Assembly: GCF_000172995.2 (NCBI RefSeq)
Contig: NC_014729.1
Location: 690,001 to 722,000 of the forward strand
DNA length: 32,000 nt
Origin: Halogeometricum borinquense DSM 11551
GTDB taxonomy: Archaea > Halobacteriota > Halobacteria > Halobacteriales > Haloferacaceae
Direction: 5' to 3'
The notes beneath the pieces are model-generated. The model saw only the letters and a program-made list of their open reading frames with translations. It was not told the DNA's origin and did no database searches. Positions 1-28,428 of the stretch are shown here, piece after piece. The position numbers were made by a program, and so were the translations under genes. Within the stretch, counting starts at the first letter, position 1. Every line of letters starts with the position of its first letter.

Positions 1-1212
1 ATACCTTCCTACTCCTTCATGTCTTCTACCCATATTTTCTCTTGGTGCTTCAGCTTGGTAGTGGTCCGGATTCTGGTACTCTTTCACGAATTCCTCTTCC
101 GATATAATTCCTTGTTGATAATACTCAAGAAGATATCTGTATTCTCGCTGTTTTTTGTGGCCCATATGCCATTGTTCTCCTCTACCTCTGTCTTTGTCCC
201 ACGTTAGCACTTCTTCTGTGTTTGGATCTCGAACCTTGTCGTCAATTCCCTCTGATCTTGCTCTGTTCCAGACTTCTTCGACTTGTCCTGGAGCGTACGG
301 TGGTCGATGATCAATACTGTATTTTTTCTGCTTATACTGTTCTGTGTCTTTTTCGGCGAATCGACCGATATTGTCCCGAGGCTGATCTCTCCACCGCTGA
401 ATGTGCACATCGGCTTTGTGCATCCGATAGATGCCGAGTTTCCCGCCGCTCATCACCCGCTGGGCCGTCTCTTCGGCTTCCCGTTCGAGACGCTCGTCAG
501 GATCAATTTCTAATTTCCCTTCTTGCGGGAGCATCGAGACGGCCCCACCTGTTTGCTGTCTCACATGCGCTAACTCGTGAGCGAGCAGGTGTTGACCTTC
601 TGTTGAAGAAGGGTCGTACTCGCCGTGGTTGAACGCGACATGATTTCCCACCGTGAACGCGCGAGCGTTGATATCCTCACAGGCGTTTGCGGCGCGTGAC
701 CCAGTATGGATACGCACGTCGTCCAAACTCTCGCCCATGCGCTCTTCCATCGCTTGTTGAATTGAGCTATCGAGTTGCTGGCCTGGCGAAGAAATCACGT
801 CACGAACCGAATCGGGGACTTGCGCGTTTCCAGATTTCGACGCCTCGTGGTGCGCGCCACGACTGCGCTGGACTGATTTAGCGTTCCGGCGCTCTATGTC
901 TTTGGGCACTTCGGCAGGACGCTGTTTTTGCCGTTCACGGAATGCACGCATGTCGCGCGGTTTGCCCATCGTGTCCACGGTCATGCCCTCGTCGGCCCAC
1001 TGCTGGACTTGGCCCGCGCCGTGTTGTTTGACAAGACGTTGGACTATCACCTCCAATCCATTCCGATACATGTCCATGCCGAAGCGCTGTTCGCAGCCCT
1101 GTGCGGTCAGCCGTCCACTGCGTTGCCGACGCGAGGAGTCCACGCGGTCCCGCTCGCTAGAAGGAGACCATTGGGTTTTCTTTTGCACCTCGTTCGCGGA
1201 GCGAAATCCCAT
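1..1212 (-). CDS. DUF4157-domain polymorphic toxin, paralog A, with a GH-E-like HNH/EndoVII nuclease C-terminal tip (3' end runs off the left window edge)
   Basis: Absent from the ORF track because no stop codon is reached inside the window. Manual reverse-complement translation from the ATG (complement of 1210-1212) gives MGFRSANEVQKK...GQQLDSSIQQAMEERMGESLDDVRIHTGSRAANACEDINARAFTVGNHVAFNHGEYDPSSTEGQHLLAHELAHVRQQTGG, a DUF4157-type signature with HExxH. This is followed by GIYRMHKADVHIQR and then ...LTWDKDRGRGEQWHMGHKKQREY...NPDHYQAEAPRENMGRRHEGVGRY. The frame stays open to base 1. The N-terminal ~270 codons are clearly paralogous to 22757..24664. Confidence 0.8.
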   Translation of the reverse strand, partial: MGFRSANEVQKKTQWSPSSERDRVDSSRRQRSGRLTAQGCEQRFGMDMYRNGLEVIVQRLVKQHGAGQVQQWADEGMTVDTMGKPRDMRAFRERQKQRPAEVPKDIERRNAKSVQRSRGAHHEASKSGNAQVPDSVRDVISSPGQQLDSSIQQAMEERMGESLDDVRIHTGSRAANACEDINARAFTVGNHVAFNHGEYDPSSTEGQHLLAHELAHVRQQTGGAVSMLPQEGKLEIDPDERLEREAEETAQRVMSGGKLGIYRMHKADVHIQRWRDQPRDNIGRFAEKDTEQYKQKKYSIDHRPPYAPGQVEEVWNRARSEGIDDKVRDPNTEEVLTWDKDRGRGEQWHMGHKKQREYRYLLEYYQQGIISEEEFVKEYQNPDHYQAEAPRENMGRRHEGVGRY

Positions 1213-2431: not shown

Positions 2432-2917
2432 CTACTCGGCTGTGTCAGCGTCTTCATCGCCTAGTTCGTCGTCGCCCATCAGGAGCGTGACGGGTCCCTC
2501 GAACGTGAGCAGAACCTTCTGGGCGACGTCACCGAACAGTGCTTTTCCGGCGGGCGAGCGACGACGGCCGCCGAGGAAGACGTGATCGACGCCCTCGGTT
2601 TCGGCAACGTCAAGAATCGTGTCGGCCTTCCGACCGACGGTACTGACGGCGCGGTAGGACACGTTCAGTTCCGATAGTACGTCGTCGGCGATTTCCATCG
2701 CTTCGCGCTCTGCGGTTCCCTCGGCCTGTTCGAGGGTGTAGATGGCGTCTGACGAGCCGATTTCGGAGACAGCACGACGCTTCTCCTCGAATTCGTCCTC
2801 CGGGATGATCGTCAAGAGAACGAGTTCGGTGTCTGTTCCTGTTGCGTACTCTCCCGCTTCTCGGATGAGACGACGGCCGCGTTTACCGGGCGTGACGACG
2901 ACGAGTGCTTGTTTCAT
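2432..2917 (-). CDS. Universal stress protein (UspA family)
   Basis: 161 aa containing VDHVFLGGRRRSPAGKALFGDVAQKVLL, the USP ATP-binding G-2x-G-9x-G(S/T)-like motif. The tail is acidic, as is typical of haloarchaeal proteins. Confidence 0.88.
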   Translation of the reverse strand: MKQALVVVTPGKRGRRLIREAGEYATGTDTELVLLTIIPEDEFEEKRRAVSEIGSSDAIYTLEQAEGTAEREAMEIADDVLSELNVSYRAVSTVGRKADTILDVAETEGVDHVFLGGRRRSPAGKALFGDVAQKVLLTFEGPVTLLMGDDELGDEDADTAE

Positions 2918-3037
2918 GCTGTTGCTGATACAACAACCGACATGAAATATTTGGTCAAATAAATGTTATCGTATACCATGGTTGGGGAGACAACGCGCAG
3001 TGTGCTCTCGTGAGATAGAGACACACTCCTCGTAGCG

Positions 3038-3913
3038 TTAGAAAACGACTGCGCCGCCGCCGACACGCGTCTGGTACGCTCGCGCCTCTACTCCGGCGTC
3101 GTCGAAGCCGTCTACCATCGCGGCGGCGACTTGGCGACGGTCGTCCGGATAGCAGGCGGCGAGGACCGATGGTCCCGCACCGGAGACAGTGACACCCGTC
3201 GCGCCCGCGTCGAGGGCGGCCGTCCGGACGTTCTCGTAGCCGGTGATGAGTTCCGACCGTGCGGGTGTGACGAGTCGTTCGTCCATTCCGCGGCCGACGA
3301 GTTCGGGATCCGACCGACACATCCCGACGGCGAGCGTCGCCGCGGAGCCGACCGTGTGCACGACATCCTCCATGTCGGCACGCGTCGGGACGACTCGGCG
3401 CGCGTCACGCGTCGAGATGGCGATTTCGGGGAGACAGGCGACCAGAGAGATATCGGTGTCAACGGTGGTGACTTCGTCCTCGCGGGCGACCGTGAACCCG
3501 CCAAGGAGGGCAGGTGCGACGTTGTCCACGTGCGCCTCGCCGGAGACGACCGCCTCACCTTCGGCGGCGGCGGGGACTAACTCCGAACGTGAGTATCCGC
3601 GGTCGTACAGGGCGTTCAACGCGAGTGCGGCACCTGCAGCGCTGGCCGCAGAAGAACCGAGACCAGATGATGGCCTGACGCCTTTGTCGATCTGGATGTG
3701 TGCGGGTGCGTCCAACGCCTCTGCGACGGCCCCAACGACGTTCTTCTCGGGGTCTTCGGGGATGTACTGACTGCCGACGCCCGTAACTTCAATCGTCGTG
3801 CGCGAGGCTTTTTCGACCCGGATCACGTCGGCAGGCCGGTCGAGGGCGACGCCGAAGACGTCGAAGCCGCTCCCGAGGTTCGCACTCGTCGCGGGTGCCC
3901 TAACCGTTCGCAT
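3038..3913 (-). CDS. thrB: Homoserine kinase (GHMP kinase family)
   Basis: MRTVRAPATSANLGSGFDVFGVAL... and PSSGLGSSAASAAGAALA (GHMP motif II). I prefer the internal ATG at 3913 over the track start at 3985, because homology-like sequence begins there. Confidence 0.9.
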   Translation of the reverse strand: MRTVRAPATSANLGSGFDVFGVALDRPADVIRVEKASRTTIEVTGVGSQYIPEDPEKNVVGAVAEALDAPAHIQIDKGVRPSSGLGSSAASAAGAALALNALYDRGYSRSELVPAAAEGEAVVSGEAHVDNVAPALLGGFTVAREDEVTTVDTDISLVACLPEIAISTRDARRVVPTRADMEDVVHTVGSAATLAVGMCRSDPELVGRGMDERLVTPARSELITGYENVRTAALDAGATGVTVSGAGPSVLAACYPDDRRQVAAAMVDGFDDAGVEARAYQTRVGGGAVVF

Positions 3914-4050
3914 GGAGTTTTTCTTTCCCAACTGCAGGTAAAAAGGTAGCGAAGCGGGGAACTTTCGCGTTCGCAGAACGGACACGATCTATCACCTCTT
4001 CCGCTTTGTCGAACAGAAAGGATTTTCCATGGGACGCCATAGCCGGATGC

Positions 4051-5403
4051 ATGATAGGTGTCGTCGGTGGCGGAATCGCAGGACTCGCCGCAGCGTATCG
4101 GCTGCGACAACACGGCTACGACGTGCAGGTGTTCGAAGCCACGGACGACGTGGGCGGCCTCGCGGCCGTCTACGAGACGGACGGCGACGATATCGAGAAG
4201 TTCTATCACCACCTCTCGAAATCCGAGGAGACTATCGTCGAACTCGCACAGGAATTGGGCCTCGGTAACAGATTAGAGTGGAAAATCGGCAAGAACTCCT
4301 ACTACGTAGACGGAACCGCCCACCCACTGGATACGGCGTGGCAGATTGCCGCGTACCCGCACATGAGCCTCTACGACAAGTTCCGCCTCGGAATGCTCAC
4401 GCAGGGTATCGACGTGCGTGGCGGTATCCCCGATTTCGACGCCTACAACGAACTGAGCGAGTACGAACACGTCTCCATCCGCGACTTCGTGGTCGAACAC
4501 ACCACTCGTGGCGTGTACGAGAACTTCGTTGATCCACTGCTTGACGGGAAGTTCGGCCACCGGAAAGACGACATCTCAGCGGCATGGTTCCTCGGTCGCA
4601 TCCGGTTCCGCGGCGAGCGTGACCTCCTGCGCGGCGAGATTCTGGGCTACTTCGACGGTGGCTTCCGACCGCTCTTGGACGCCCTCGTCGATGCCGTCGG
4701 CCGCGAGAACATCACGACCGGCGCGCGAGTGGCCGAGTTGGCGACCGATGGCGAGTCGGTCGATTCGCTCACCGTGGAAACTGCGGATGGAACTACGACG
4801 CACGACGTGGACTCCGTCGTCGTCGCGGCGATGCCGAACGTCCTCGAAGATCTGACCGGGTACGAGTGCGATATCGAGTTCCAAGGGGCCGTCTGTGGCC
4901 TCGTCACGATGTCCGAGTCGTTGCTGGACACCTACTGGCTCAACGTCGCCCACGACGCTCCGTTCGGATCGCTCATCGAACACACGAACTTCATCCCGAA
5001 AGAGCGGTACGGCGGTGACCACCTGCTGTATATCGCCAGCTACGTCCAGAGCCGCGAGGAGGAGTTGTGGCAGATGGACGACGACGAAGTCGAGGAGTTG
5101 TGGCTCGACGAAATCGAGTCGATGTACCCCGACTTCGACCGGTCTACAGTCGAAGAGTTCCGTATCGCGCGGAACCCCCGTGCGGGTCCCATCTACGAAC
5201 GGGGTTATCTCGATTTGGTCGTCCCTTACGACCTCGGAGACGAAGTGTCCGAGGGCGTCTATTATGCGGGGATGGCATCTGCGTCTCAGTACCCCGAACG
5301 CTCGCTGAACGGCGGTATCGTGGCAGGCTACGAGTGCGCCGACCGCATCGCACAGAAGCGGCGACCCGACCCGGACCGCGAATCGGTTCCCGCTGACGAC
5401 TGA
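4051..5403 (+). CDS. NAD(P)/FAD-dependent oxidoreductase (amine oxidase / phytoene-desaturase-like fold)
   Basis: The N-terminus carries the dinucleotide-binding motif MIGVVGGGIAGLAAAYRLRQHGYDVQVFEATDDVGGLA. The ATG at 4051 is preferred over the TTG at 4006 used by the track. Confidence 0.85.
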   Translation: MIGVVGGGIAGLAAAYRLRQHGYDVQVFEATDDVGGLAAVYETDGDDIEKFYHHLSKSEETIVELAQELGLGNRLEWKIGKNSYYVDGTAHPLDTAWQIAAYPHMSLYDKFRLGMLTQGIDVRGGIPDFDAYNELSEYEHVSIRDFVVEHTTRGVYENFVDPLLDGKFGHRKDDISAAWFLGRIRFRGERDLLRGEILGYFDGGFRPLLDALVDAVGRENITTGARVAELATDGESVDSLTVETADGTTTHDVDSVVVAAMPNVLEDLTGYECDIEFQGAVCGLVTMSESLLDTYWLNVAHDAPFGSLIEHTNFIPKERYGGDHLLYIASYVQSREEELWQMDDDEVEELWLDEIESMYPDFDRSTVEEFRIARNPRAGPIYERGYLDLVVPYDLGDEVSEGVYYAGMASASQYPERSLNGGIVAGYECADRIAQKRRPDPDRESVPADD

Positions 5404-5461
5404 ATCTATAATTTTATTTTTGACATATACCTTCGAAGCGAAACCCCTTTCACCGATACTG

Positions 5462-5475
5462 ACTGACTAGTCAGT
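5462..5475. promoter_or_regulatory. Perfect 14-bp palindrome, candidate TetR operator
   Basis: ACTGACTAGTCAGT is a perfect inverted repeat ending 3 nt before the GTG start of the TetR gene (5478). An AT-rich tract (attttatttttgacatatac, 5411-5430) lies upstream and may be the promoter. Confidence 0.5.
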
Positions 5476-5477
5476 TA

Positions 5478-6119
5478 GTGAACGAGCAGATGGAATCGTC
5501 GGTCCCCCCCGACGTACACGAGACGGTTATGGAAGCGACGTACCGGGCGCTTTGTGCCAACGGGTTCGCCAGTCTGACGATGCAGGACATCGCGGACGAG
5601 GCGGAGAAAAGTACCTCCCTCCTGCACTACCACTACGACACGAAACGCGACCTGTTGGTCGCCTTTCTTCGATATCTCCTCGAACGATTCGAAGAGAAGT
5701 TCGAGGATACGGAAGACGAAGATCCCGAAGAACGGCTTCGCCTTCTTGTTTCTCGGATGCTTCCGGCGGACGAAACCACCGATGAAAATCGGGTTGACGA
5801 ATCGGATTACGACCGCTTCGGACTCGCTATCCTCGAAGTCCGGATGCAGGCCCCGTACGAGGAGGACTACCGCGAGCAGTTGCGTACGAACATGGAGGTA
5901 ATCCGGTCGGGGCTGGCGAATGTCATCGAAGACGGTATCGAGACGGGTGCGTTCCGCGATGTCGATCCAGACAGGACGGCGCGACTCATCGTAGACGCCC
6001 TCGACGGCGCGCGGAGCGAACGCGTGACGTTGGACGACAATGACGCCCCTACGGAGGTTGCCGCCGCGCTTGACGAGTTCGTCCTTTCGTCGTTAGTGAC
6101 TGGAGGTGACGACGCGTGA
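5478..6119 (+). CDS. TetR/AcrR family transcriptional regulator
   Basis: The N-terminal HTH reads FASLTMQDIADEAEKSTSLLHYHYDTKRDLLVAFL. The stop overlaps the start of the downstream MATE gene (GTGA at 6116). Confidence 0.9.
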   Translation: MNEQMESSVPPDVHETVMEATYRALCANGFASLTMQDIADEAEKSTSLLHYHYDTKRDLLVAFLRYLLERFEEKFEDTEDEDPEERLRLLVSRMLPADETTDENRVDESDYDRFGLAILEVRMQAPYEEDYREQLRTNMEVIRSGLANVIEDGIETGAFRDVDPDRTARLIVDALDGARSERVTLDDNDAPTEVAAALDEFVLSSLVTGGDDA

Positions 6120-18634: not shown

Positions 18635-18838
18635 CGCGCGCGGTCTGAATTTCGCTATTTTCGTTATGACCTCATCCCTGTCTCGAACTCGGACGCTGCC
18701 GTGTGGGTATCACTGTAGCGTGTCTCCGGTCCAATCGCCCGCCGTGCGGCGTTCGTGACGCTCACTAACACCCGACGCCCCCGCCTCGAAAAGAAACTCT
18801 TAAACTAATCCTCGAACAACCACTGAATGCGCTCACCT

Positions 18839-18912
18839 GGGCCAATAGCTCAGTCAGGTTGAGCGCTCGGCTGATAACCGGGAGGCCCGCGGTTCAAATC
18901 CGCGTTGGCCCA
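18839..18912 (+). tRNA. tRNA-Ile (anticodon GAU)
   Basis: Cloverleaf folded by hand, 74 nt. Acceptor stem GGGCCAA/TTGGCCC, D stem GCTC/GAGC, anticodon stem CTCGG/CCGGG, anticodon loop CTGATAA (anticodon GAT), variable loop AGGCC, T stem CGCGG/CCGCG with loop TTCAAAT, discriminator A. No CCA is encoded. Confidence 0.92.
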
Positions 18913-19086
18913 TGCCCAGGACGGCCGGTCTTTGACCGGCCCCGTCTGGGGGGCTCAACTCCCCAGCCACCTAATTTCCGTACTTCACACTTCTGAGCCG
19001 CAGCTATTTCATCTTAAGTTCATTCACGGTTTGAACGGTGGTCGCCGCCGTCTGTCGATTCGAATAGCCGACGGAGGTGACCCCGC

Positions 19087-19326
19087 GTGACGTTCGCCCA
19101 GCGGAACCTCTCCGTAGGCGGGTTCTCGACGGAGAAAGACTGCGAATTCCGCTGTCCGCACTGTCGCGCTCGCTGTACTGAATCTCCTGTCAACGAAACG
19201 GAATTCGGACATCGGGACGGTTGCCCTCGGCGTCCAACACATCTGCCAACTGGCGGGGGCGGTGCGACCTATGAAGACATCCGCGGCGACGAACTCGCCA
19301 CAGATGGAAGAGGTTCCCGCGCATGA
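19087..19326 (+). CDS. Small Zn-ribbon-like protein
   Basis: 79 aa with CEFRCPHCRARC...HRDGCPRRPTH. The stop overlaps the next start (ATGA at 19323). Confidence 0.5.
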   Translation: MTFAQRNLSVGGFSTEKDCEFRCPHCRARCTESPVNETEFGHRDGCPRRPTHLPTGGGGATYEDIRGDELATDGRGSRA

Positions 19327-19991
19327 GCCTCGCGCCGTCCAAGCGCGGGGGCAACGCCGCTGAATCTACCGTTCACCAACTTGTTGACGGCCTCCGGTAC
19401 GTTCCGGACTCGGAAGCCGAACATTACGACGCCGAAGTTGTCGAACTCCTTTTACCGAGTGCCGACCTTCCGTTCGTCGGCATCTGTCTCCTCGAGGTCG
19501 GCGTCGCTGTCGAAATCAAGAGCGCCATGGCCGTCTACGGCCAAGCCCAGCGCCGCGGCCGCTTCCTCATCCGCCAATCGAAGCATATCGCGCAGGGAGT
19601 CGTCGAACATATCGACTCTGCGCGGTCTGTCGTCGAGAACACGCTCGAGGAAGCTGCTGACGATCTCGTGCGTGCGGAGACGTTCGGTGACGATGATCCG
19701 TGGAGTCGGTGGCTCGATCACTACGTCGAAGACGTTGAAGAGGGGGCGGGAAGCGGGAACCGCGACGTTCTGGAGTTCGGGTGGAAGCCGAGTGATCGAC
19801 ACGACGCGAAGCGACTCATCCGCGCGGGCGCGATGAAGTGGGCGGAAGTCGCGGGTGAGGATATGCCGCGATTTGCGAGGGAGTTTGAGGTTGAAATGAC
19901 GCTCGCGGATAACTCACGGTTCAACCTCGACTGGAGAGCCTTGAAGAAACTCCTGCCACGGAACTACTCGCTGACGCCGTCGCACGGCTGA
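19323..19991 (+). CDS. Hypothetical protein with an Hjc-like / PD-(D/E)xK nuclease-fold N-terminal signature
   Basis: SKRGGNAAESTVHQLVDGL...HYDAEVVELL...VGVAVEIKSAM...RRGRFLIRQSKH fits an E...D...E-x-K pattern as in archaeal Holliday-junction-resolvase-like nucleases. This assignment is an inference. Confidence 0.6.
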   Translation: MSLAPSKRGGNAAESTVHQLVDGLRYVPDSEAEHYDAEVVELLLPSADLPFVGICLLEVGVAVEIKSAMAVYGQAQRRGRFLIRQSKHIAQGVVEHIDSARSVVENTLEEAADDLVRAETFGDDDPWSRWLDHYVEDVEEGAGSGNRDVLEFGWKPSDRHDAKRLIRAGAMKWAEVAGEDMPRFAREFEVEMTLADNSRFNLDWRALKKLLPRNYSLTPSHG

Positions 19992-20474
19992 GGCGGGGCC
20001 TCGTGAGTGGCAACACTATTCGTCGCCTGTTTTTGCGGTAATCGTTTCTGCTTTTCTGCCGGTTCTGGTACTTGGCTGGAGGTTCTTGATCGGCATCGTC
20101 ATCGAGGCCGACGAGCGACTGCCTTCGAAACTGGCGGGGGTACCCCACTTGTCCGTTAGGGGTGTCGGTAAAGACCGACACGGACAGATTACCTCAGCCT
20201 TCGCTTCGCTCAGGCTTCAGATGAAACAGACGAAGCATGGTCGCCGCGCCTACTCGGCGCGGCTTGGCGCGTATTAGATGTAGTGTGAGCCGCCGTTTCC
20301 TTCTACTTGTCAATTATAGCTTATCTATGTAGAGAGAAGATACTCCTCACTGTTGAGGTAATCACTTGGGTGAAGGAGCGACAATTGATTGGTCCAAGTT
20401 CAGAGTACACGGGAAGTCTCCCAGGACATTTTCGTTCTCGTTTAACTCAGGAGAATCTAGTCTATCATATCCAT

Positions 20475-20507
<33 letters not shown>

Positions 20508-20798
20508 GATGACAAATATTGTCGGGAGGTATGCCAACGAGATTGTTGTCGTTTTTTGGATCTTATGACTTTTTAGCTAAGACCTTGCCCGGAATTGCAT
20601 TCGTTGTAGGAATATTTCCATTATGTTGAATTAATCCCCGACGTATCTGCTGAGCCGCCAAGAGTTTCATTGCTTTGGAGGCCACATAACCAAGGGTCTT
20701 CCACCGGATCTTCGAGGGGGTGAGTTTCCCGCTGGCAGTGTTCGCCTTCAGTCACAGCACGGTGACAAAGAAGACCGAACTGGCGTCAAAATACGATG

Positions 20799-21227
20799 TT
20801 AGAAGCTGATGCCGTACCCGTTCTTTTTTGCGAACTCAATGAGGTTAATGCACATCTCAATCGTTCGATCTACGATCTCCATTCGATCGTCGTCAAGTTG
20901 ATCCTCGAGGTTCTTGCGGGCAACTTCAAGTGACGTGACGAACGTATCGAGTCCTTCTATATCTCGGACTACTCCGTCCTCGTCACGATACTTGAATAAT
21001 ATCTCTGCTATTGATGGCTCTCCCGTATCTACTACCTGTGTTGTTGGATTTTTATAGATCATAAACACATCATCCTGCCGTAAGTTCTCTTTAAAGTGCT
21101 TATATTCGGAGATTTCATCGAGGGAGTCGTCGTATTTTGAGTTTTCAACATGGTAACGGTAGAACTGTTTACCAGTTGCAAGCGTCTCCTTCTCGTCAGG
21201 GACAACTAGTGAGAATGTACTACTCAT
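20799..21227 (-). CDS. Putative immunity protein for the orphan toxin tip
   Basis: 142 aa, low GC, starting 4 nt downstream of the orphan toxin cassette. No signal peptide and no recognised family. The role is inferred from position only. Confidence 0.6.
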   Translation of the reverse strand: MSSTFSLVVPDEKETLATGKQFYRYHVENSKYDDSLDEISEYKHFKENLRQDDVFMIYKNPTTQVVDTGEPSIAEILFKYRDEDGVVRDIEGLDTFVTSLEVARKNLEDQLDDDRMEIVDRTIEMCINLIEFAKKNGYGISF

Positions 21228-21231
21228 ATTC

Positions 21232-21984
21232 TCACCACGGGCTCACGCTTTTGGCTACTCTATACATCAGCTCAAGCACCTCATTGGTCCACCTGTACGT
21301 TTCAACTTGATCAGAGTCTATGTCTTCGTGTTCACCAGTGTTGTCCATTCCCCTCGGGACAATAGCACATGCCTCAGTGTTCGCGAAGTCGTCTCCTGAC
21401 AGATCCAATACGGACTTGTTCAATCGATCCGGATTTTCAATCTTAGGAACACCATTTTCGTCTTGAGGTATTCCTGAGTTCTGTATATCGGCGATCTTAT
21501 TTTCCGCTTGTTTGATCGCCTCTCTTGCATGATCGTCATTACTTGAGCCAGTTTTTTCTTCGACGGCTTTCACAACTTCCCCCTTCTCCTTGTCCATGAT
21601 TAGCTTGTCAATTTCTGGGTTTTCTTCAGTGTATACATGAAATCCCTTAGCCATATTATCGTGAGCCGGAACTACTACAAGTTCATCTCTCTCGTCAAAG
21701 TCCTTAACAAAGCTTTCAACAAGATTTTTCTCCGGATGTGACGAGAGAACTTCCCCAACGTCACCTTGGTCCCCACCGAGATCTTTGGGTGAGTCACCGA
21801 TTCTCCAGAGGTCCTCGAAGAACTCATCGTATTTGTCATCGTCTACGGTCTGTTCTAACTCAGCGAGTAACTCGTCACTCAATCCCATCTCTTTGAGCGC
21901 CACCAGTGGTGACGCCACAGTATCCCGATCAGGGAGGTTGTTCCAGCGGGGCATCCGCTGAACGTGCACGTCTGAGTGCTCCAT
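21232..21984 (-). CDS. Orphan (displaced) polymorphic-toxin C-terminal cassette
   Basis: The 250-aa ORF begins MEHSDVHVQRMPRW..., exactly the junction motif found inside the 635-aa toxin (...HRMEHSDVHVQRVPQ...). 35 nt are identical (21956-21990 versus 23829-23863). It has no DUF4157 module of its own, and the remainder is unique and low GC. Confidence 0.75.
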   Translation of the reverse strand: MEHSDVHVQRMPRWNNLPDRDTVASPLVALKEMGLSDELLAELEQTVDDDKYDEFFEDLWRIGDSPKDLGGDQGDVGEVLSSHPEKNLVESFVKDFDERDELVVVPAHDNMAKGFHVYTEENPEIDKLIMDKEKGEVVKAVEEKTGSSNDDHAREAIKQAENKIADIQNSGIPQDENGVPKIENPDRLNKSVLDLSGDDFANTEACAIVPRGMDNTGEHEDIDSDQVETYRWTNEVLELMYRVAKSVSPW

Positions 21985-21990
21985 GCGATG
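21956..21990. repeat. 35-nt exact repeat, copy 1 (junction of the orphan toxin cassette)
   Basis: cgctgaacgtgcacgtctgagtgctccatgcgatg is identical to 23829-23863. The flanking bases differ on both sides. Confidence 0.9.
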
Positions 21991-21998
21991 GAGTGAGA

Positions 21999-22766
21999 CT
22001 ATTCGCGTGAATGAATAGCGAGATCAGTGAGATGGTCCTCTTCTTCAAGTGTTGACTCCGATAGAGAGTCTGCAAAGAACTGAATTCTGTCTGGTTCCAG
22101 CTCTTCTTTGAATTGATTGAGACATGTAACAAGCCGCCCTCTATTTATTGCACCAATTGTAGTATCCTTGAACCAGATATCTGTGTCTGTATAGACGCTT
22201 ACTAAAATACTTGTCATTGGACTCGAATCATCGTAGCCATCTATGTCATGGCTAACCTCAAATCGCAGAGGATCAATTGAAGAGCTGCCAAGGATGTCGT
22301 CTTCATTACGTCTATTAACGACCTTATAGTATTGATCGTTCTCAGAACAAAGATATCGGTTTTCACCACTAATATAGAATTTTGTCAATCCCGACCCGAA
22401 CTTAACGTTGGAAACGATCCGTTGATAGCCATCTTCCGTCGTGGATTCGCTAAACTGCTCAAATATCTCTGATACGTCTAATCCATCTTGATCTTCATAC
22501 TCATAGCTTTCTGCGATAAGATCAGTGGACTCGAAGTCATATATCTGATCCAGTGATACCTCATTTGGGTATGTGAATTCTCCAACTTCTATGCTAGTCG
22601 GTCGATAAAAACAGCCAAATGCATCAGATATGAGTGAAATTACAGTAGTAACATTCTGGTGTGATTCTTGAACTGATTCTCCGACATCATCAATTCGAAA
22701 TGTCCATGATGCATCTAAGTGAGGATTTGAGACGATGAAATCAGTATTAGGGATCATTACTGCCAT
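21999..22766 (-). CDS. Putative immunity protein for the DUF4157 / PD-(D/E)xK-like toxin
   Basis: 255 aa, acidic, low GC. Its ATG lies inside the last codons of the toxin gene (minus strand ATGGCAGTAA, a 10-nt overlap). No family recognised; the role is inferred from position. Confidence 0.65.
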   Translation of the reverse strand: MAVMIPNTDFIVSNPHLDASWTFRIDDVGESVQESHQNVTTVISLISDAFGCFYRPTSIEVGEFTYPNEVSLDQIYDFESTDLIAESYEYEDQDGLDVSEIFEQFSESTTEDGYQRIVSNVKFGSGLTKFYISGENRYLCSENDQYYKVVNRRNEDDILGSSSIDPLRFEVSHDIDGYDDSSPMTSILVSVYTDTDIWFKDTTIGAINRGRLVTCLNQFKEELEPDRIQFFADSLSESTLEEEDHLTDLAIHSRE

Positions 22767-24664
22767 TGCACCTCATTTTTGTTTATTTTACCTGTGATAA
22801 CCTTGTTTCCGACCACAATACGGACAGCATCAATGGGTACTGATCCAAATTGGATTTTCTTCATTATGTACGATTCAATGTACCGTTTTGCGTCCTCTAG
22901 CGGCTTACCTCTCAATTCTCCTTTTTCATCAATAGGGCTTTTGAAATTTAACTCAACTATCCTTTCGTGATGATCAACATTAAACTCATTAGATACGTCT
23001 TCAATTTTCTTACTAACAGAATCAGATTCAAACTTGTCTATAGTCTTACCTATCTCACCACTAATGAAATCTTTATCGACGTATCCTTTCTTTGGACTCT
23101 TTTGTTCTGCCCAGATGGCTTTATTCCCCTCCACAGCCAAGATGTCAATTCGATCTTCCCTGTCCGGTTCCATCTCAACATATTCTGACTGTCTTACGTA
23201 TGCAGCGAGTCGTTCTGTCTCAAATGCCACACCATCAAATACACTGTTCGGATCGTTATTTGACAACGATCCAATTGAATCGTCACCATCAACGACTGTT
23301 GTTGCGTCCCGCTGGGCGACATCCATCGTTTCTTCGAGTCGGGCCAGGTACTCCAGAATTCGTTCTGACCCATGTCCCTCAGCGATCTCTGTCAATAAGT
23401 TTCGTCGCCACTTTCCAAGTGTTGCAGCATGGTACTCGGAGAAGTCCTCGACAGTAGTGCCCATTACTGCACTGAACAGGTCTGTTCCACGTCTCTCCGC
23501 AATTTCGAGGGCGGATGAATCACCGGTAGCGATCACCTGGTCCACAGCCGAAGCGTTTCCTTCAGTACGGTACCCCAACAAGTCATTCAGTTGTTCTTGC
23601 TGGTCGGATGAGAGCGATCCCGAGTCATCGATAGCTAGATCCTCAGCAAAGTCGAAGCCTCGGGGGGTATCCGTACCATTGGCATTCAGCAGTGCCGCCA
23701 AAAGTTCCGGGCGAAGGCTCTCTGAGCCCTCACTGTAAGACTCTAGTAACGCTCTAATTTTCTCCTCTTGCTCTTCGTCAATGTCGAACTTAGAGAGTGC
23801 AAGCCCCAATCGGGCCGATTGAGGAACACGCTGAACGTGCACGTCTGAGTGCTCCATGCGATGCACGCCGATTTTCCCACCTTGCATCACGCGCTGGGCG
23901 GTTTCTTCGGCTTCCCGCTCTAAGCGCGGGTCAGGATCAATCTCTAACTCGCCTTCTTGGGGAAGCATCGACACCGCGCCACCAGTTTGTTGGCGCACGT
24001 GCGCTAACTCGTGGGCGAGAATATGCTGGCCTTCAGCACTTGATGGATCGTATTCGCCGTGGTTGAACGCGATGTGATTCCCGACGGTAAACGCGCGGGC
24101 GTTGATATCCTCGCAAGCTTTCGCGGCCGATGGACCCGTATGGATGCGTACATCGCCCAGATTGTCGCCCATCCGATCTTCCATCGCACGCTGGATGCTC
24201 GTGTCGAGTTGCTGGCCCGGCGAGGAAATCACGTCTCGTACGGAGTCAGGCACGTTCGTGTCGCCAGCTTTCGACGCCTCGTGGTGCGCGCCGCGACTAC
24301 GCTGGACAGATTTAGCGTTCCGGCGTTCGATGTCCTTTGGGACTTCTGCGGGACGCTGTTTTTGCCGTTCACGGAACGCGCGCATGTCGCGTGGTTTGCC
24401 CATCGTATCGACGGTCATTCCCTCGTCGGCCCATTCTCGGACTTGACCTGCGCCGTGTTTCTTGGCCAGTCGCTGAATCTTCGTATCCAGCCCGTCCATG
24501 TATATTTCGACGCCGAATCGTGATTCACACTCTTGGGGTGTTAGCGAACCACCGCCACTCCGGCCTCGATCACGACCTGAGCCTCCCGTCAGCTCTTGGA
24601 TCGAGGGGACAGACGAGGACCGATCACCCTCACGGGTTCGTTCCTCTGTAGATCGAAATCCCAT
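22757..24664 (-). CDS. DUF4157-domain polymorphic toxin, paralog B, with a PD-(D/E)xK-like C-terminal tip
   Basis: 635 aa. The DUF4157-type signature is GQQLDTSIQRAMEDRMGDNLGDVRIHTGPSAAKACEDINARAFTVGNHIAFNHGEYDPSSAEGQHILAHELAHVRQQTGG. The junction reads GVHRMEHSDVHVQR. The C-terminal region FETERLAAYV...DRIDILAVEGNKAIWAEQKSPKK fits E...D...E-x-K. GC drops visibly 3' of the junction. Confidence 0.9.
   Translation of the reverse strand: MGFRSTEERTREGDRSSSVPSIQELTGGSGRDRGRSGGGSLTPQECESRFGVEIYMDGLDTKIQRLAKKHGAGQVREWADEGMTVDTMGKPRDMRAFRERQKQRPAEVPKDIERRNAKSVQRSRGAHHEASKAGDTNVPDSVRDVISSPGQQLDTSIQRAMEDRMGDNLGDVRIHTGPSAAKACEDINARAFTVGNHIAFNHGEYDPSSAEGQHILAHELAHVRQQTGGAVSMLPQEGELEIDPDPRLEREAEETAQRVMQGGKIGVHRMEHSDVHVQRVPQSARLGLALSKFDIDEEQEEKIRALLESYSEGSESLRPELLAALLNANGTDTPRGFDFAEDLAIDDSGSLSSDQQEQLNDLLGYRTEGNASAVDQVIATGDSSALEIAERRGTDLFSAVMGTTVEDFSEYHAATLGKWRRNLLTEIAEGHGSERILEYLARLEETMDVAQRDATTVVDGDDSIGSLSNNDPNSVFDGVAFETERLAAYVRQSEYVEMEPDREDRIDILAVEGNKAIWAEQKSPKKGYVDKDFISGEIGKTIDKFESDSVSKKIEDVSNEFNVDHHERIVELNFKSPIDEKGELRGKPLEDAKRYIESYIMKKIQFGSVPIDAVRIVVGNKVITGKINKNEVQWQ
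23829..23863. repeat. 35-nt exact repeat, copy 2 (junction inside the full-length toxin gene)
   Basis: Identical to 21956-21990. On the minus strand it encodes HRMEHSDVHVQR. Confidence 0.9.
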
Positions 24665-24689
24665 CTTTCTACCTGATTGACAGCAACCC

Positions 24690-24698
24690 CATATAATT
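24690..24698 (-). promoter_or_regulatory. Putative TATA box for a leaderless transcript of toxin paralog B
   Basis: catataatt lies about 27 nt upstream of the ATG at 24664. It matches in sequence and spacing the element upstream of paralog A (1240-1248). Confidence 0.45.
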
Positions 24699-24754
24699 CC
24701 TCTCCGTTCGAGACCGAACGTTTCTGTACGGACGAGGACAGTGCGTGAGCGCCG

Positions 24755-25138
24755 TTAGAACAGCGCAGAGAGAACGGCGAGGTCGTCGGCCGACGGCCAC
24801 GTGTAGAGCGCCCACGCGCCGAACACGTAGGCCATGAGCGGGACTTCGAGGCCGAATGCCCACGGGACCACGAACGGCGTGAGGAGTGCCCCGACCATCG
24901 TCGGCGCGAGGTTCGCAACGACGACGACGACCACGGGCGTCCCAGCGGGATAGTTGAGTTCGAGACGCGGTGGAACGAGTCGATCGACGAGATCCAACGG
25001 GCGGGTTGCCTCGATCCACGGCCACGCCACCGCAGCATGCGTGAGTTCGTGCGCGAGTACTGCGGGGAACATAACGAGCGCCCCGAGGAGATCGACGAGG
25101 CCGACATTCTCTGAATCCGTATCAGAGGTCGTCGTCAT
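24755..25138 (-). CDS. Small integral membrane protein with an HExxH motif (zincin-like, DUF3267-like)
   Basis: From the ATG at 25138: MTTTSDTDSENVGLVDLLGALVMFPAVLAHELTHAAVAWPW..., followed by hydrophobic helices. The ATG overlaps the stop of the upstream gene (ATGA at 25135-25138). It lies directly upstream of the toxin gene on the same strand. Confidence 0.65.
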   Translation of the reverse strand: MTTTSDTDSENVGLVDLLGALVMFPAVLAHELTHAAVAWPWIEATRPLDLVDRLVPPRLELNYPAGTPVVVVVVANLAPTMVGALLTPFVVPWAFGLEVPLMAYVFGAWALYTWPSADDLAVLSALF

Positions 25139-25811
25139 CGCGGACGAGCACCTCCGCCGTTCCATAAGCTAAACAGTGCAAGCGCCGCGCCGAACAGGAT
25201 CGACATGAACGCTCCAATCTTGGCCGCAGGCGGGAGGAACGGCATGAGGAACCCGCCGATCAGGATCGAAATCACTGCGGGGAGATCAGCGCGACCCTCA
25301 GTGAGGATGTAGAGAATCGTGCCGATCCCGATCCCGAGCATGGCTGGCGCAACCGGCCCAAGGAGATCCATGAACGGCTTGACGAACCCCGCCCACGCGT
25401 CGCCCTCTTTCCACGGATCGTCGTAGGGGCTGTCGTACTGTGCGACCGTACTCGAGAGAACCCACGCGACCTCCAGGAGAACCGAGGACGTCACCGCGGA
25501 CGCACCCCCGAACGCCCGGTGAACATGTAGATCACAAATAGACCCATTGACCACGTGAGTGGCGACGCGATCATAACCGCACCCCACGACGGAAGGCCCG
25601 CATTGACGAGCATATCCGCTAAGGCGTATATCAATACGAACGACGAAACGACCTCGTCAGTACCGGAGATCGTCGCAACTGACGCGAGCGACGACCCGCC
25701 GAAGTCGAAAGTCTTTGACGCCGCGTTGACGCATCTTACCGAGTCCGAGGAGAATCTGCAGGACGTTCGTGTCAAGTACTCGCCCCAGATGGTGAAGGAC
25801 TGCTGTAACAC
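25135..25811 (-). pseudogene. Multi-pass membrane protein gene, apparently split by a 1-nt frameshift at a G5/C5 run
   Basis: ORFs 25491..25811 and 25135..25587 overlap by 97 nt on the same strand and are offset by one frame. The downstream ORF has only a GTG start far upstream of its hydrophobic core. Adding one G at the run ccccc (25506-25510) would join ...IYMFTGRSG to GASAVTSSVLLEV... The alternative is two separate genes. Confidence 0.45.
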
Positions 25812-25991
25812 GCAGGTTCTGGGACTTCGGTATCGGACGTCTGTTGAGAGTCGGTGGCGGAGATAAACCTTCAGTCTCGCACGAGGTAGTTTTATTCACC
25901 AACTCAACTATTAGATACTACTTTCTAGATTGGTTTTGGGAGTTTAGTCGGATTGTTTACTCTACTTGTGACAAATTTAGCTATTCCCTGA

Positions 25992-26822
25992 TTAGTTCCG
26001 TAGTTCCTTTTCACTGGCCAATCCATCCATGAACCTACGTCCTAAGTCAGATACCTCATACTGTTTGTACATATCCCGATCCAGCAGGCCCTTATTCAAC
26101 AACAATTCGCATCTTTTTTCTGTTAATTCTATGCTCTTTCCTACTTTTTTTGAAATTTGGTCAACCCTCTGTGCCTGATCTTCTTGTTGAACTGCTTCAA
26201 TAATTCTATAATCAATAACCTCCATCCATGGTATTTTCGTATGGGACCGAAGTGGACTGAGTCTATATAATCTGAGAAAATAGTGGGCGGTATGACGTTT
26301 CCCCTCAGTAGCTAAATATTTAAAATCTGGAAGTATTGTTGAGATATACGGGATAGATTGGTAAACTAGTGTGAGTACCAGAATCAATATTATGGAAGAA
26401 ATCAAATACGATTTACCTCCTCCGTAATATCCAGTTATCACTCCGGAGGCTAATCCTATGAACAATAGCAGTGTAGTAAGTGTAGAGAAGAATAGACTAG
26501 CATCTGTGAGCCGAGAGAAAGAGGATATCTCTCTGGCGTTGTAATCGGACCAGCCCGAATCTGCTCCTTTCGGCTTCTTGTGTGTCTGAGATACTAGAAC
26601 TAGAGTGACCGAGAATATCCACAGCAATCCACCAATAATTGTTGCATAAGAATTGACTGCATTAGAGACCGAGACTGACTTAATGTTCGAATTTGAAACG
26701 ACTGCAAGGGCAGTAAGAAAGGCAGAAATCTGGATTACGTTATATTTTTGAATACTGTCTAATCGGTCCATCAAATGCTCATACCGAGGGTCAACGGAGG
26801 TTTGATCCTCGTCACTTCCCAT
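25992..26822 (-). CDS. Membrane-anchored winged-helix protein (N-terminal multi-TM region plus C-terminal wHTH)
   Basis: 276 aa, low GC. There are about four hydrophobic helices (e.g. IIGGLLWIFSVTLVLV, SSIILILVLTLVY). The C-terminus reads VIDYRIIEAVQQEDQAQRVDQISKKVGKSIELTEKRCELLLNKGLLDR, which is MarR/wHTH-like. Confidence 0.7.
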   Translation of the reverse strand: MGSDEDQTSVDPRYEHLMDRLDSIQKYNVIQISAFLTALAVVSNSNIKSVSVSNAVNSYATIIGGLLWIFSVTLVLVSQTHKKPKGADSGWSDYNAREISSFSRLTDASLFFSTLTTLLLFIGLASGVITGYYGGGKSYLISSIILILVLTLVYQSIPYISTILPDFKYLATEGKRHTAHYFLRLYRLSPLRSHTKIPWMEVIDYRIIEAVQQEDQAQRVDQISKKVGKSIELTEKRCELLLNKGLLDRDMYKQYEVSDLGRRFMDGLASEKELRN

Positions 26823-26947
26823 AGAAAATAAATTCTGTAGTATTTTATATATGCTGTGATCATTTCTCCTATGAAACGGAAACTAAAATATCACCTCCGC
26901 AGAAACCTCCAGAATTAAGTCATTCTCAGTACAGTTTTTGATTGGGA

Positions 26948-27745
26948 ATGGCGACTCCAACGACTATTCCGATCAGCGTACTTTCTATCCTCTTGCTCCT
27001 AGCTCCGGGATTGGTAGGTCTTCAAATATTTTTCAAATATGCTCAGAGGAGACCTTCCCCATCACGTACTAAGTGGGTTGCTTGGAGCGCTCTCACCAGT
27101 TTAATTTCGCTTGTATTGCTCTATTTATTCTCGGGATTTTATTTACTGAACCTAAGAAGGATTGCCAGTAGTCTGAGTGGATTTCTTGGTATAATTTCTA
27201 TCAATGGTATTGAACTATCTGCCACAAGTGCTTTATTCTTGTACCTATCCCATATATTTGTTATATTCGTTGGATCATCTCTTCTTGGGTTGTTTGATCG
27301 AAATATTCTAAACAAAGACGAAATTCTTGATCCACGTGAGCCATGGGAATACGCATTTGATGAAATTCCGGTAGATGGTGAAGAATTAGATATCTATCTT
27401 CAAGATGGTGTTCAACTACGAGGAGAGTTCAATGAGAGAGCGTGGGATAGCTCCAAACGCGAATTATTCCTTGAAAATCCGTATAAAGTTGAATCAGATG
27501 GCAAGGGTGGACAATCTCTATCGGATTTGGGTAGAAGCATTTTAATTCAATCTAAGGCAGTTTCGCATATTGTGTTTGCTACTGAAGATCCCGACCAGAA
27601 ACGAATAGAATCTATTGAGGTCACTTCTGAAACAGCAGGAGAAATAGAAAACCTGATTAACGAAGTATTGACCCCTGACGTTACTGGCTATGAAGATCAA
27701 GAAAAGAGAGACAACAAGCAGGATGACGAAGAGGATGCGGATTAA
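26948..27745 (+). CDS. Hypothetical membrane protein with a soluble acidic C-terminal domain
   Basis: Low GC. ATG at 26948 (the track uses TTG at 26942). The N-terminal helices read ISVLSILLLLAPGLVGLQIFF, ALTSLISLVLLYLFSGFYLL and ALFLYLSHIFVIFVGSSLLGLF. The tail reads QEKRDNKQDDEEDAD. Confidence 0.7.
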   Translation: MATPTTIPISVLSILLLLAPGLVGLQIFFKYAQRRPSPSRTKWVAWSALTSLISLVLLYLFSGFYLLNLRRIASSLSGFLGIISINGIELSATSALFLYLSHIFVIFVGSSLLGLFDRNILNKDEILDPREPWEYAFDEIPVDGEELDIYLQDGVQLRGEFNERAWDSSKRELFLENPYKVESDGKGGQSLSDLGRSILIQSKAVSHIVFATEDPDQKRIESIEVTSETAGEIENLINEVLTPDVTGYEDQEKRDNKQDDEEDAD

Positions 27746-27746
27746 T

Positions 27747-28202
27747 TCAAATTTTGTCCACTATATCTAATTCACTTTTTTCGGTATAGTCTGGATATTT
27801 CTGATATACATACCGTAATAATCTATCCAAAGGGGTATCTTGATATCTCTTTTTTATACTCTCTGCAGCTTTGAGCACGTGGTCAACATCTCTGTTCTCA
27901 TCGTTTATGAGGGACTTGACCACTCTTCTCCCCTCATCAGTTAGTGAATAGATGTATTTCTCATTACCCGATACAGTAGTTTCAGTACGTCTTTCTATGA
28001 TTCCCTTATTCTCTAATGTCTTGATTGAACCAGCTAATGACGGTGAAAATGGTCCGTATTTGTCAGACTTAAATTCGTGTAGCTCAGAGATGTCTTTTTC
28101 TTTTTGAGTTAAAAATGCCAGCTTTTGAAAACGAGTAGCTCCCTCTATCTCCGCGTTATTATTTACATACATCAATGCCAGAGGGAGTAAGACATCAGCC
28201 AT
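27747..28202 (-). CDS. YwgA-like / Panacea(DUF4065)-like protein with a wHTH
   Basis: From the ATG at 28202: MADVLLPLALMYV...GATRFQKLAFLTQKEKDISELHEFKSDKYGPFSPSLAGSIKTLENKGIIERRTE...GNEKYIYSLTDEGRRVV. The K-x-Q-K-hydrophobic ... Y-G-P-(F/Y)-S pattern followed by a PadR-like wing matches my recollection of Bacillus YwgA-type proteins. Confidence 0.7.
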   Translation of the reverse strand: MADVLLPLALMYVNNNAEIEGATRFQKLAFLTQKEKDISELHEFKSDKYGPFSPSLAGSIKTLENKGIIERRTETTVSGNEKYIYSLTDEGRRVVKSLINDENRDVDHVLKAAESIKKRYQDTPLDRLLRYVYQKYPDYTEKSELDIVDKI

Positions 28203-28428
28203 TGTTTCTGATCTCTTGCTTCTTCTTATATAATATACTCCAACCCAGAGTCCTAAGAGTGTTGCTGTATCTCGATTCTTCGGATACACCTTCTGTCTGA
28301 GAAGCTCAGAACCACTTCCACCGAACCTTCACTCCGAATCCACGAATCGGATTTACTACAACCCAGACCTTCAGTCACCAGTACAATGCGTTCGAGCTAC
28401 CGGCACGCCAGGTCAGGGGGAGCCTGAA

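Follow-up and report, generated by a model that had tools for sequence, protein, structure and literature searches.

A DUF4157 toxin cassette beside the end of a putative virion operon in a predicted fragment of a spindle-shaped provirus of Halogeometricum borinquense

The present work concerns a window of 32,000 nucleotides from the chromosome of the haloarchaeon Halogeometricum borinquense DSM 11551 (NC_014729.1, positions 690,001 to 722,000), in which the gene of a polymorphic toxin, Hbor_07690, lies directly downstream of two small membrane-protein genes that we call A and B; the remnant of a third gene, C, precedes them. A sequence-only reading of this window had proposed that the toxin is either loaded onto machinery encoded elsewhere, or exported, processed or neutralized with the participation of the membrane proteins. 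Our comparisons make it very probable that these genes are the end of a provirus operon unlinked to the toxin, and that the toxin is provirus cargo exported by a type VI secretion system (T6SS)-like apparatus encoded by plasmid pHBOR03.

The conservation of the operon carries the first part of this interpretation. In two other strains of H. borinquense, the genes of 126-, 119- and 127-amino acid (aa) proteins, corresponding to C, B and A, close a ~10-kb co-directional operon of overlapping genes. The products encoded before them measure 158, 115, 186, 334, 942-1062, 98, 97 and 927-1029 aa; the 97-98-aa pair are membrane proteins and the 927-1029-aa product is an Ig-like protein. A DUF4157 toxin follows A in both strains. 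Operons ending in C-B-A and devoid of DUF4157 were found in Halolamina salifodinae, Halarchaeum salinum, Halogeometricum limi, two contigs from Logan sequencing runs and Haloferax virus LSV-48N. Altogether, the large Ig-like protein, C, B and A occur in this order, with A last, in nine non-redundant contexts. A hidden Markov model of the toxin N-terminus detected DUF4157 in three of the nine, all belonging to H. borinquense, and the expected co-occurrence of the HExxH membrane gene with DUF4157 across taxa was therefore not borne out. The other genera carry unrelated genes after A, at the position occupied by the toxin in H. borinquense; the membrane genes are thus conserved beside unrelated genes in relatives devoid of the toxin, an outcome that the sequence-only reading had itself set against its proposal. 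Since A, B and C keep both order and sequence across several haloarchaeal genera, their arrangement is not due to chance.

The operon is homologous and syntenic to the structural module of Haloferax virus LSV-48N (PP151251.1; proposed Almyrocitroviridae). The Ig-like protein matches LSV-48N CDS0012 (E 2e-111), a full-length C homologue matches CDS0011 (E 1e-19), gene B gives a weak pairwise match to CDS0010 (E 2e-4) and gene A is homologous to CDS0008 (E 5e-4), with the HExxH motif conserved. A DUF7845 gene located near the operon matches CDS0026 of this circular genome, a protein assigned to Pfam DUF7845 at E 4.5e-93. Nine consecutive protein sizes from the supernatant proteomics of the LSV-48N paper could be mapped onto the GenBank genes, and the 122-aa homologue of C displays the second-highest intensity-based absolute quantification (iBAQ) value among viral proteins in the particle-containing supernatant. 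A separate observation concerns the ~1060-aa operon protein (positions 2713-5901 of locus L005, from one of the two other H. borinquense strains), which matches several phage tape-measure PHROGs (best E 3e-11); the match may stem from coiled-coil composition or denote a real tail-related protein. A tailed-provirus interpretation of the operon drawn from these matches was dropped in view of the homology to lemon-shaped LSV-48N and of a partial match to His1.

At the window locus, the operon is cut. DNA alignments to five related loci all end at position 25676, which corresponds to codon 66 of C, and the reading frame upstream of this point is unrelated to full-length C. Accordingly, residues 66-126 of full-length C are the only ones to match the window by tblastn, at 100%. 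The third open reading frame (ORF) of the group, at 25491-25811 on the minus strand, begins at a GTG whose position, 25811, was the upper coordinate of the sequence-only reading; only its final 61 codons (25494-25676) are a genuine gene remnant, and 25677-25811 is most likely non-coding at this locus. At the opposite end, a 222-aa ORF (19323-19991) matches the viral DUF7845 protein over just its last 137 residues, with 99% identity. Taken together, these alignments identify the region from about 19578 to 25676 as a predicted 6.1-kb internal fragment of an LSV-48N-like spindle-shaped provirus in the DSM 11551 chromosome. A complete virus genome with an integrase, replication genes and attachment sites is absent from the locus, homology being confined to 19578-25676. 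A tRNA-Ile gene adjoining the fragment is a possible former integration site of the provirus; no tRNA-Ile repeat of 11 nt or more that could represent an attachment site was found in the window.

The DSM 11551 chromosome holds a second, intact copy of the operon, with C, B and A annotated as ADQ68441, ADQ68440 and ADQ68439, respectively. Its large protein is ADQ68445 (Hbor_29060) and the neighbour of A, ADQ68438 (Hbor_28990), is again a DUF4157 protein. Between the two copies, B is 100% identical (ADQ68440.1) and A differs by one residue. Exact sequence look-up assigned window gene A to ADQ66367.1, and consecutive accession numbers suggest the locus tag Hbor_07700; gene B is ADQ66368.1, presumably Hbor_07710. 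The description of A as a 127-aa membrane protein with an AHELTHA motif, its start codon and the TGA of the preceding gene forming an ATGA overlap, was accurate. That preceding gene is most plausibly the 119-aa ORF at 25135-25494 (minus strand), gene B, whose three hydrophobic segments agree with the multi-pass membrane protein reported earlier and whose GTG start overlaps the stop of the third ORF as GTGA.

The second part of the interpretation, the export of the toxin, draws on published experiments. Zachs et al. (2024) described in H. borinquense a membrane-anchored, T6SS-like contractile injection system (CIS) encoded on pHBOR03 (Hbor_38640-38890), which kills Haloferax volcanii by contact (PMC11566945). 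Hbor_07690 belongs to a set of five DUF4157 proteins whose abundance in the secretome was higher for the wild type than for the sheath mutant, and it was not toxic when expressed in Hfx. volcanii (PMC11566945). This sheath-dependent secretion agrees with the proposal that the toxins are loaded onto machinery encoded elsewhere, and the secretome analysis that had been suggested for the 635-aa protein already existed in the same publication. The export route, presented as an open question, is for DSM 11551 published and located on a replicon other than the chromosome. The main text of the article is silent on the provirus context of Hbor_07690 and on the 255-aa gene downstream, and names no downstream partner (PMC11566945). 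When the main ORFs of the window were scanned with Pfam, no sheath, tube, baseplate or AAA+ genes came up, in keeping with the sequence-only reading; the scans returned housekeeping functions only (Usp, GHMP kinase, amine oxidase, TetR, MatE, trypsin/PDZ protease, folE2, DUF255, FxsA and others), PdxS being named from its source name. Both toxin paralogs of the window begin with MGFRS and are free of Sec or Tat signals and of a hydrophobic N-terminus, again in line with the earlier description; the 635-aa toxin is considered devoid of a membrane-type segment because its highest 19-residue Kyte-Doolittle mean is just 1.04.

The location of the toxin genes within the provirus is seen in the strain represented by locus L005, where the toxin cassette is inserted between gene A and the DUF7845 gene, both of which belong to the LSV-48N genome; because of these viral flanks, we consider that the cassette is carried as cargo by a variable provirus region. 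In this strain, the toxin N-terminus and a C-terminal domain homologous to the window's orphan ORF form a single fusion, after which comes a homologue of the 142-aa ORF. The window would present a rearranged version, in which a new C-terminal domain and the 255-aa ORF come first and the older pair of C-terminal domain and immunity gene appears displaced downstream. The orphan module begins with MEHSDVHVQR, the same junction as toxin residues 269-278, and the 35-nt exact repeat found at both places is read as the mark of the junction of swapped C-terminal domains. The 255-aa ORF is likely the cognate immunity gene of the toxin. It is listed only under RefSeq and other-strain accessions and has no ADQ number: the consecutive numbers ADQ66364 (142 aa), ADQ66365 (orphan module) and ADQ66366 (toxin) leave none for it. 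The 635-aa toxin itself corresponds to WP_244880403.1, and ADQ66366.1, the 580-aa call for Hbor_07690, is identical to its residues 56-635. A AATTATAT box is found 27-33 nt upstream of the ATG in both window paralogs, and its position and conservation suggest that it serves as the toxin's own promoter. The second paralog carries a GH-E HNH/EndoVII nuclease domain (E 4.5e-26); upstream of it lies pdxS, with no membrane genes. The coordinates of all these features are collected in Table 1.

Table 1. Features of the 32,000-nt window, numbered from its first nucleotide
Feature	Position	Strand	Description
Second toxin paralog	1..1212	-	DUF4157 (E 1.1e-31) and GH-E HNH nuclease; runs off the window
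tRNA-Ile (GAT)	18838..18913	+	Adjoins the provirus fragment
DUF7845 3' remnant	19578..19991	+	Last 137 codons; left end of the provirus fragment
Putative immunity gene of the orphan module	20799..21227	-	142 aa, ADQ66364.1
Orphan toxin C-terminal module	21232..21984	-	250 aa, ADQ66365.1, presumably Hbor_07680
255-aa ORF	21999..22766	-	Overlaps the toxin stop by 10 nt
Toxin Hbor_07690	22757..24664	-	635 aa, polymorphic toxin, DUF4157 (PF13699, eCIS_core), Pfam E 2e-31
35-nt exact repeat	23829..23863; second copy 21956-21990	-	MEHSDVHVQR junction
TTATAT box	24691..24696	-	27 nt upstream of the toxin ATG; common to the second paralog
Gene A	24755..25138	-	127-aa membrane protein; final gene of the putative provirus virion operon
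HELTH motif of gene A	25037-25051	-	Codons 30-34; AHELTHA is residues 29-35
Gene B	25135..25494	-	119 aa, GTG start, three hydrophobic segments
Gene C remnant (C')	25491..25676	-	Codons 66-126 and stop of a 126-aa virion-associated membrane protein, 5' end lost
Upstream extension of the C' ORF	25677..25811	-	No homology to any provirus locus

The identity of gene A was approached through its relatives. Its close homologues form a small family sharing 59-70% identity across several haloarchaeal genera, and an exhaustive profile search (inclusion at E up to 0.001) gathered 449 cluster representatives, nearly all of 110-150 aa, a sample of 147 of which was used for the motif and Pfam tallies. E31, H34 and P79 are invariant in this sample, while H30, P25, G83, P115 and D119 are conserved in at least 90% of it; P115 and D119, as read from conservation only, would be the distal Pro/Asp at the place of the third zinc ligand in the site-2 protease (S2P) clan. 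Of the 147 relatives, 48 match PF11667 (DUF3267) with E values of 0.01 or less, the best being 5.7e-8, while seven match Peptidase_M50 or M50B. The DUF3267-like label given to the protein by the sequence-only reading is thus supported in a transitive manner only, as relatives match PF11667 and the window protein itself does not. The analogy with CPBP-type immunity proteins was rejected, as Pfam gave no CPBP match and the protein carries HExxH/S2P-clan motifs instead. An AlphaFold2 model of A (predicted local distance difference test score, pLDDT, 86.8) consists of four helices, with HELTH inside the predicted helix 14-41. The top Foldseek match of this model in the PDB is the Methanocaldococcus site-2 protease mjS2P (3b4r; E 0.27, TM-score 0.43), a structure that also ranks first in a profile search of PDB sequences (E 0.046, HExxH helix only), and the top viral match in BFVD is an M50 peptidase (E 0.27). 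These results support the prediction of A as a divergent protein of the DUF3267/site-2-protease clan. An exact look-up of window gene A in the contig index gave no record, IMG/VR scans with the gene A alignment and with the toxin N-terminus returned nothing, and a genome-collection scan with the gene A alignment, whose search patterns were narrow, yielded two loci only.

A mechanism can be proposed on this basis. C', B and A would represent the 3' end of the ~10-kb co-directional virion/morphogenesis operon of the virus, which would encode first small proteins, next a protein of ~900-1060 aa, two membrane proteins of ~97 aa each and an Ig-like protein of ~930-1030 aa, and finally C, B and A, with no functional link to the toxin. 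A would be a minimal intramembrane zinc metalloprotease with four helices, belonging to the DUF3267/site-2-protease clan. The proposed function borrows from TmcP, a DUF3267 protein described in a 2026 preprint as a four-helix S2P-clan intramembrane protease that cuts the leader off a membrane-embedded precursor and depends on a two-helix partner, the escort TmcE (PMC13252029). By analogy, we infer that A may mature a virion membrane protein: in the intact virus, it would cleave a small membrane-embedded virion protein within the membrane, the candidates being C or another structural protein. The LSV-48N homologue of C is abundant in particle preparations, and B may act as the partner of A, as TmcE does for TmcP. 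The cassette, composed of Hbor_07690, the putative 255-aa immunity gene, the orphan C-terminal module and its own putative immunity gene, would be cargo between A and DUF7845, with the toxin driven by its TATA-like box and exported by the pHBOR03-encoded T6SS-like contractile injection system. At the window locus, B and A are probably relics, since C is cut at codon 66 and the operon promoter region is gone.

Several rival explanations have to be weighed against this scheme. A and its neighbour might be accessory factors of the toxin, namely a processing protease, an exporter or a membrane immunity factor. Such a role would suit two genes located directly upstream of the toxin on the same strand, an adjacency that recurs at two DSM 11551 loci and in at least two further strains, and the predicted protease nature of A. 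The adjacency is nevertheless limited to one species, at loci that are copies of one provirus segment, whereas the six contexts of other genera, Halogeometricum limi and LSV-48N included, keep C-B-A without DUF4157. Moreover, the second window paralog, with pdxS upstream, is not accompanied by A or B genes, a 90-nt gap containing the conserved TATA-like box separates the toxin from A, and the T6SS already accounts for export. We regard accessory factors as exceedingly improbable, and the proposed participation of the membrane genes in export, processing or self-protection is abandoned with them.

The presence of the cassette inside a provirus, with conserved viral genes on either side, raises the alternative that the virus itself delivers or releases the toxin, either packaged on spindle-shaped particles or freed at egress as a virus-encoded killer toxin; DeWerff et al., cited in PMC12714723, are reported to have described a parallel, a killer phenotype caused by a chronic spindle-shaped virus of Sulfolobus. 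This is very improbable: less Hbor_07690 was secreted when the CIS sheath was mutated, a result in favour of the T6SS, the window locus lacks the virion operon, and LSV-48N encodes no DUF4157 protein, so that none is possible among its supernatant proteins. It could also be argued that A and B are not inert debris and are kept for the benefit of the host, for instance by blocking superinfection by related spindle viruses. Both ORFs are indeed intact, and their products are identical (B) or one residue off (A) with respect to the intact copy. Recent duplication or gene conversion would explain this near-identity equally well, and the loss of the upstream gene and of the operon promoter argues the other way; we consider host benefit unlikely.

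Some observations weigh against the preferred reading, that of a provirus operon end beside a T6SS-exported cargo toxin. The window protein A gave no Pfam match even at E 10, and neither Pfam nor PHROG returned a match for A, B or C. The structural matches of A to S2P proteins all lie below significance, and the TM-score of 0.43 is short of the value above 0.5 taken as fold similarity to a solved S2P. The LSV-48N homologues of A and B are absent from the proteins detected in the supernatant. The loci of the relatives were viewed over 10 kb upstream of A, and the window fragment could be either a decayed second provirus or a piece transferred from the intact one. A Logan contig of 1016 bp (L003, from run SRR9434877), 99.7% identical to window positions 24661-25676, ends exactly at the truncation point of C and at the toxin start codon, bounds that are consistent with the segment being the repeat common to the two genome loci.

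Other observations concern the surroundings of the fragment and the cassettes of other loci. A low-GC island (25677-28400, ~0.39-0.40 as compared to ~0.6 in the flanks) starts at the end of the provirus homology. Its genes specify a membrane protein that terminates in a helix-turn-helix (HTH) domain (weak match to the CARF-associated HTH), a DUF6338 protein and a third product, PadR/HxlR-like, which weakly matches SocA/Panacea; it is possibly a separate mobile or defence island. Inside the fragment, the AT-rich spacer that separates the DUF7845 remnant from the orphan immunity gene contains TA dinucleotide repeats (20478-20508). Accession order would put the second toxin paralog near Hbor_07460, which is not among the five secreted proteins reported. 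Strain GCA_004150395.1 carries three partial copies of the toxin N-terminal region in tandem, annotated 'partial' (L004 10475-12002); this toxin is pseudogenised at the intact provirus locus. Downstream of the same toxin cluster (L004 12992-14427), genes of 157 and 318 aa (DUF7958) cluster at 90% identity with Hbor_01860 and ADQ65796.1, the latter being the preceding accession of DSM 11551, presumably Hbor_01850. Because these downstream genes match the neighbours of the T6SS-secreted Hbor_01880, toxin cassettes and their flanks appear to move between loci. In Halogeometricum limi, the region after A contains genes for a Cdc6-like protein and for an OLD-family (AAA_15/TOPRIM) nuclease (L011 12499-14241), a different cargo at the position of the H. 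borinquense toxin.

The original observation is of limited weight and is largely explained, with toxin export already published and the neighbouring membrane genes being probable virus leftovers. Two modest novelties are brought by the comparison: DUF4157 T6SS effector cassettes are embedded in an H. borinquense spindle-shaped provirus, and the final gene of the Almyrocitroviridae-type virion operon becomes annotatable as a divergent DUF3267/S2P-like protein. Provirus-borne cassettes undergoing swapping of C-terminal domains suggest that viruses help to spread and diversify contact-dependent weapons in archaea. The likely immunity gene (21999-22766) lacks a GenBank protein number in the very record whose locus tags were used by the secretion study, and A becomes a candidate maturation factor for virion proteins among viruses in which nearly all genes are 'hypothetical'. 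A broader proposal, which we put forward tentatively and as doubtful in its entirety, is that a family of spindle-shaped haloarchaeal proviruses carries and shuffles T6SS effector-immunity cassettes among H. borinquense strains while A, with B and/or C, forms a TmcP/TmcE-like virion maturation module. If true, archaea would possess a virus-borne T6SS arsenal in which the cassette survives the loss of the virus within a fragment that is retained, and A would be the first maturation protease proposed for the Almyrocitroviridae.

The similarities and differences with known systems can finally be outlined. Bacterial polymorphic toxins such as those of contact-dependent inhibition (CDI) systems and Rhs carry orphan C-terminal/immunity modules. 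The window likewise contains a displaced C-terminal domain and immunity gene downstream of the toxin, starting at a repeated junction, here the 35-nt exact repeat; unlike these systems, the toxin is archaeal and of the DUF4157 type, and its cassette lies inside a provirus. CPBP-type immunity proteins resemble A and B as multi-helix membrane proteins with a protease-like motif near a toxin, and differ from them in that A carries the HExxH/S2P-clan motif and the A/B genes co-occur with the toxin in one species only. The T6SS-dependent DUF4157 effectors (PMC11566945) include the window toxin, which has their DUF4157 N-terminus, variable C-terminus and downstream immunity-like gene. TmcP, with its escort TmcE, shares with A the format of a small four-helix membrane protein with HExxH and, as predicted for A, a distal Pro/Asp, a best PDB match to 3b4r and a position beside small membrane-protein genes; A differs from TmcP in being below the Pfam threshold, shorter (about 127 aa) and encoded in a viral context instead of a gene cluster for a peptide that is made by the ribosome and modified after translation (RiPP), its protease role being predicted. 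LSV-48N CDS0008-CDS0012 present the same order, Ig-like protein, C, B-like gene and A last, with HExxH kept and a DUF7845 gene in the genome. In contrast, identity is just 33-38%, an extra 74-aa gene separates the B-like gene from A and no DUF4157 toxin is encoded in LSV-48N, whose genome has as its counterpart in the window a truncated fragment.

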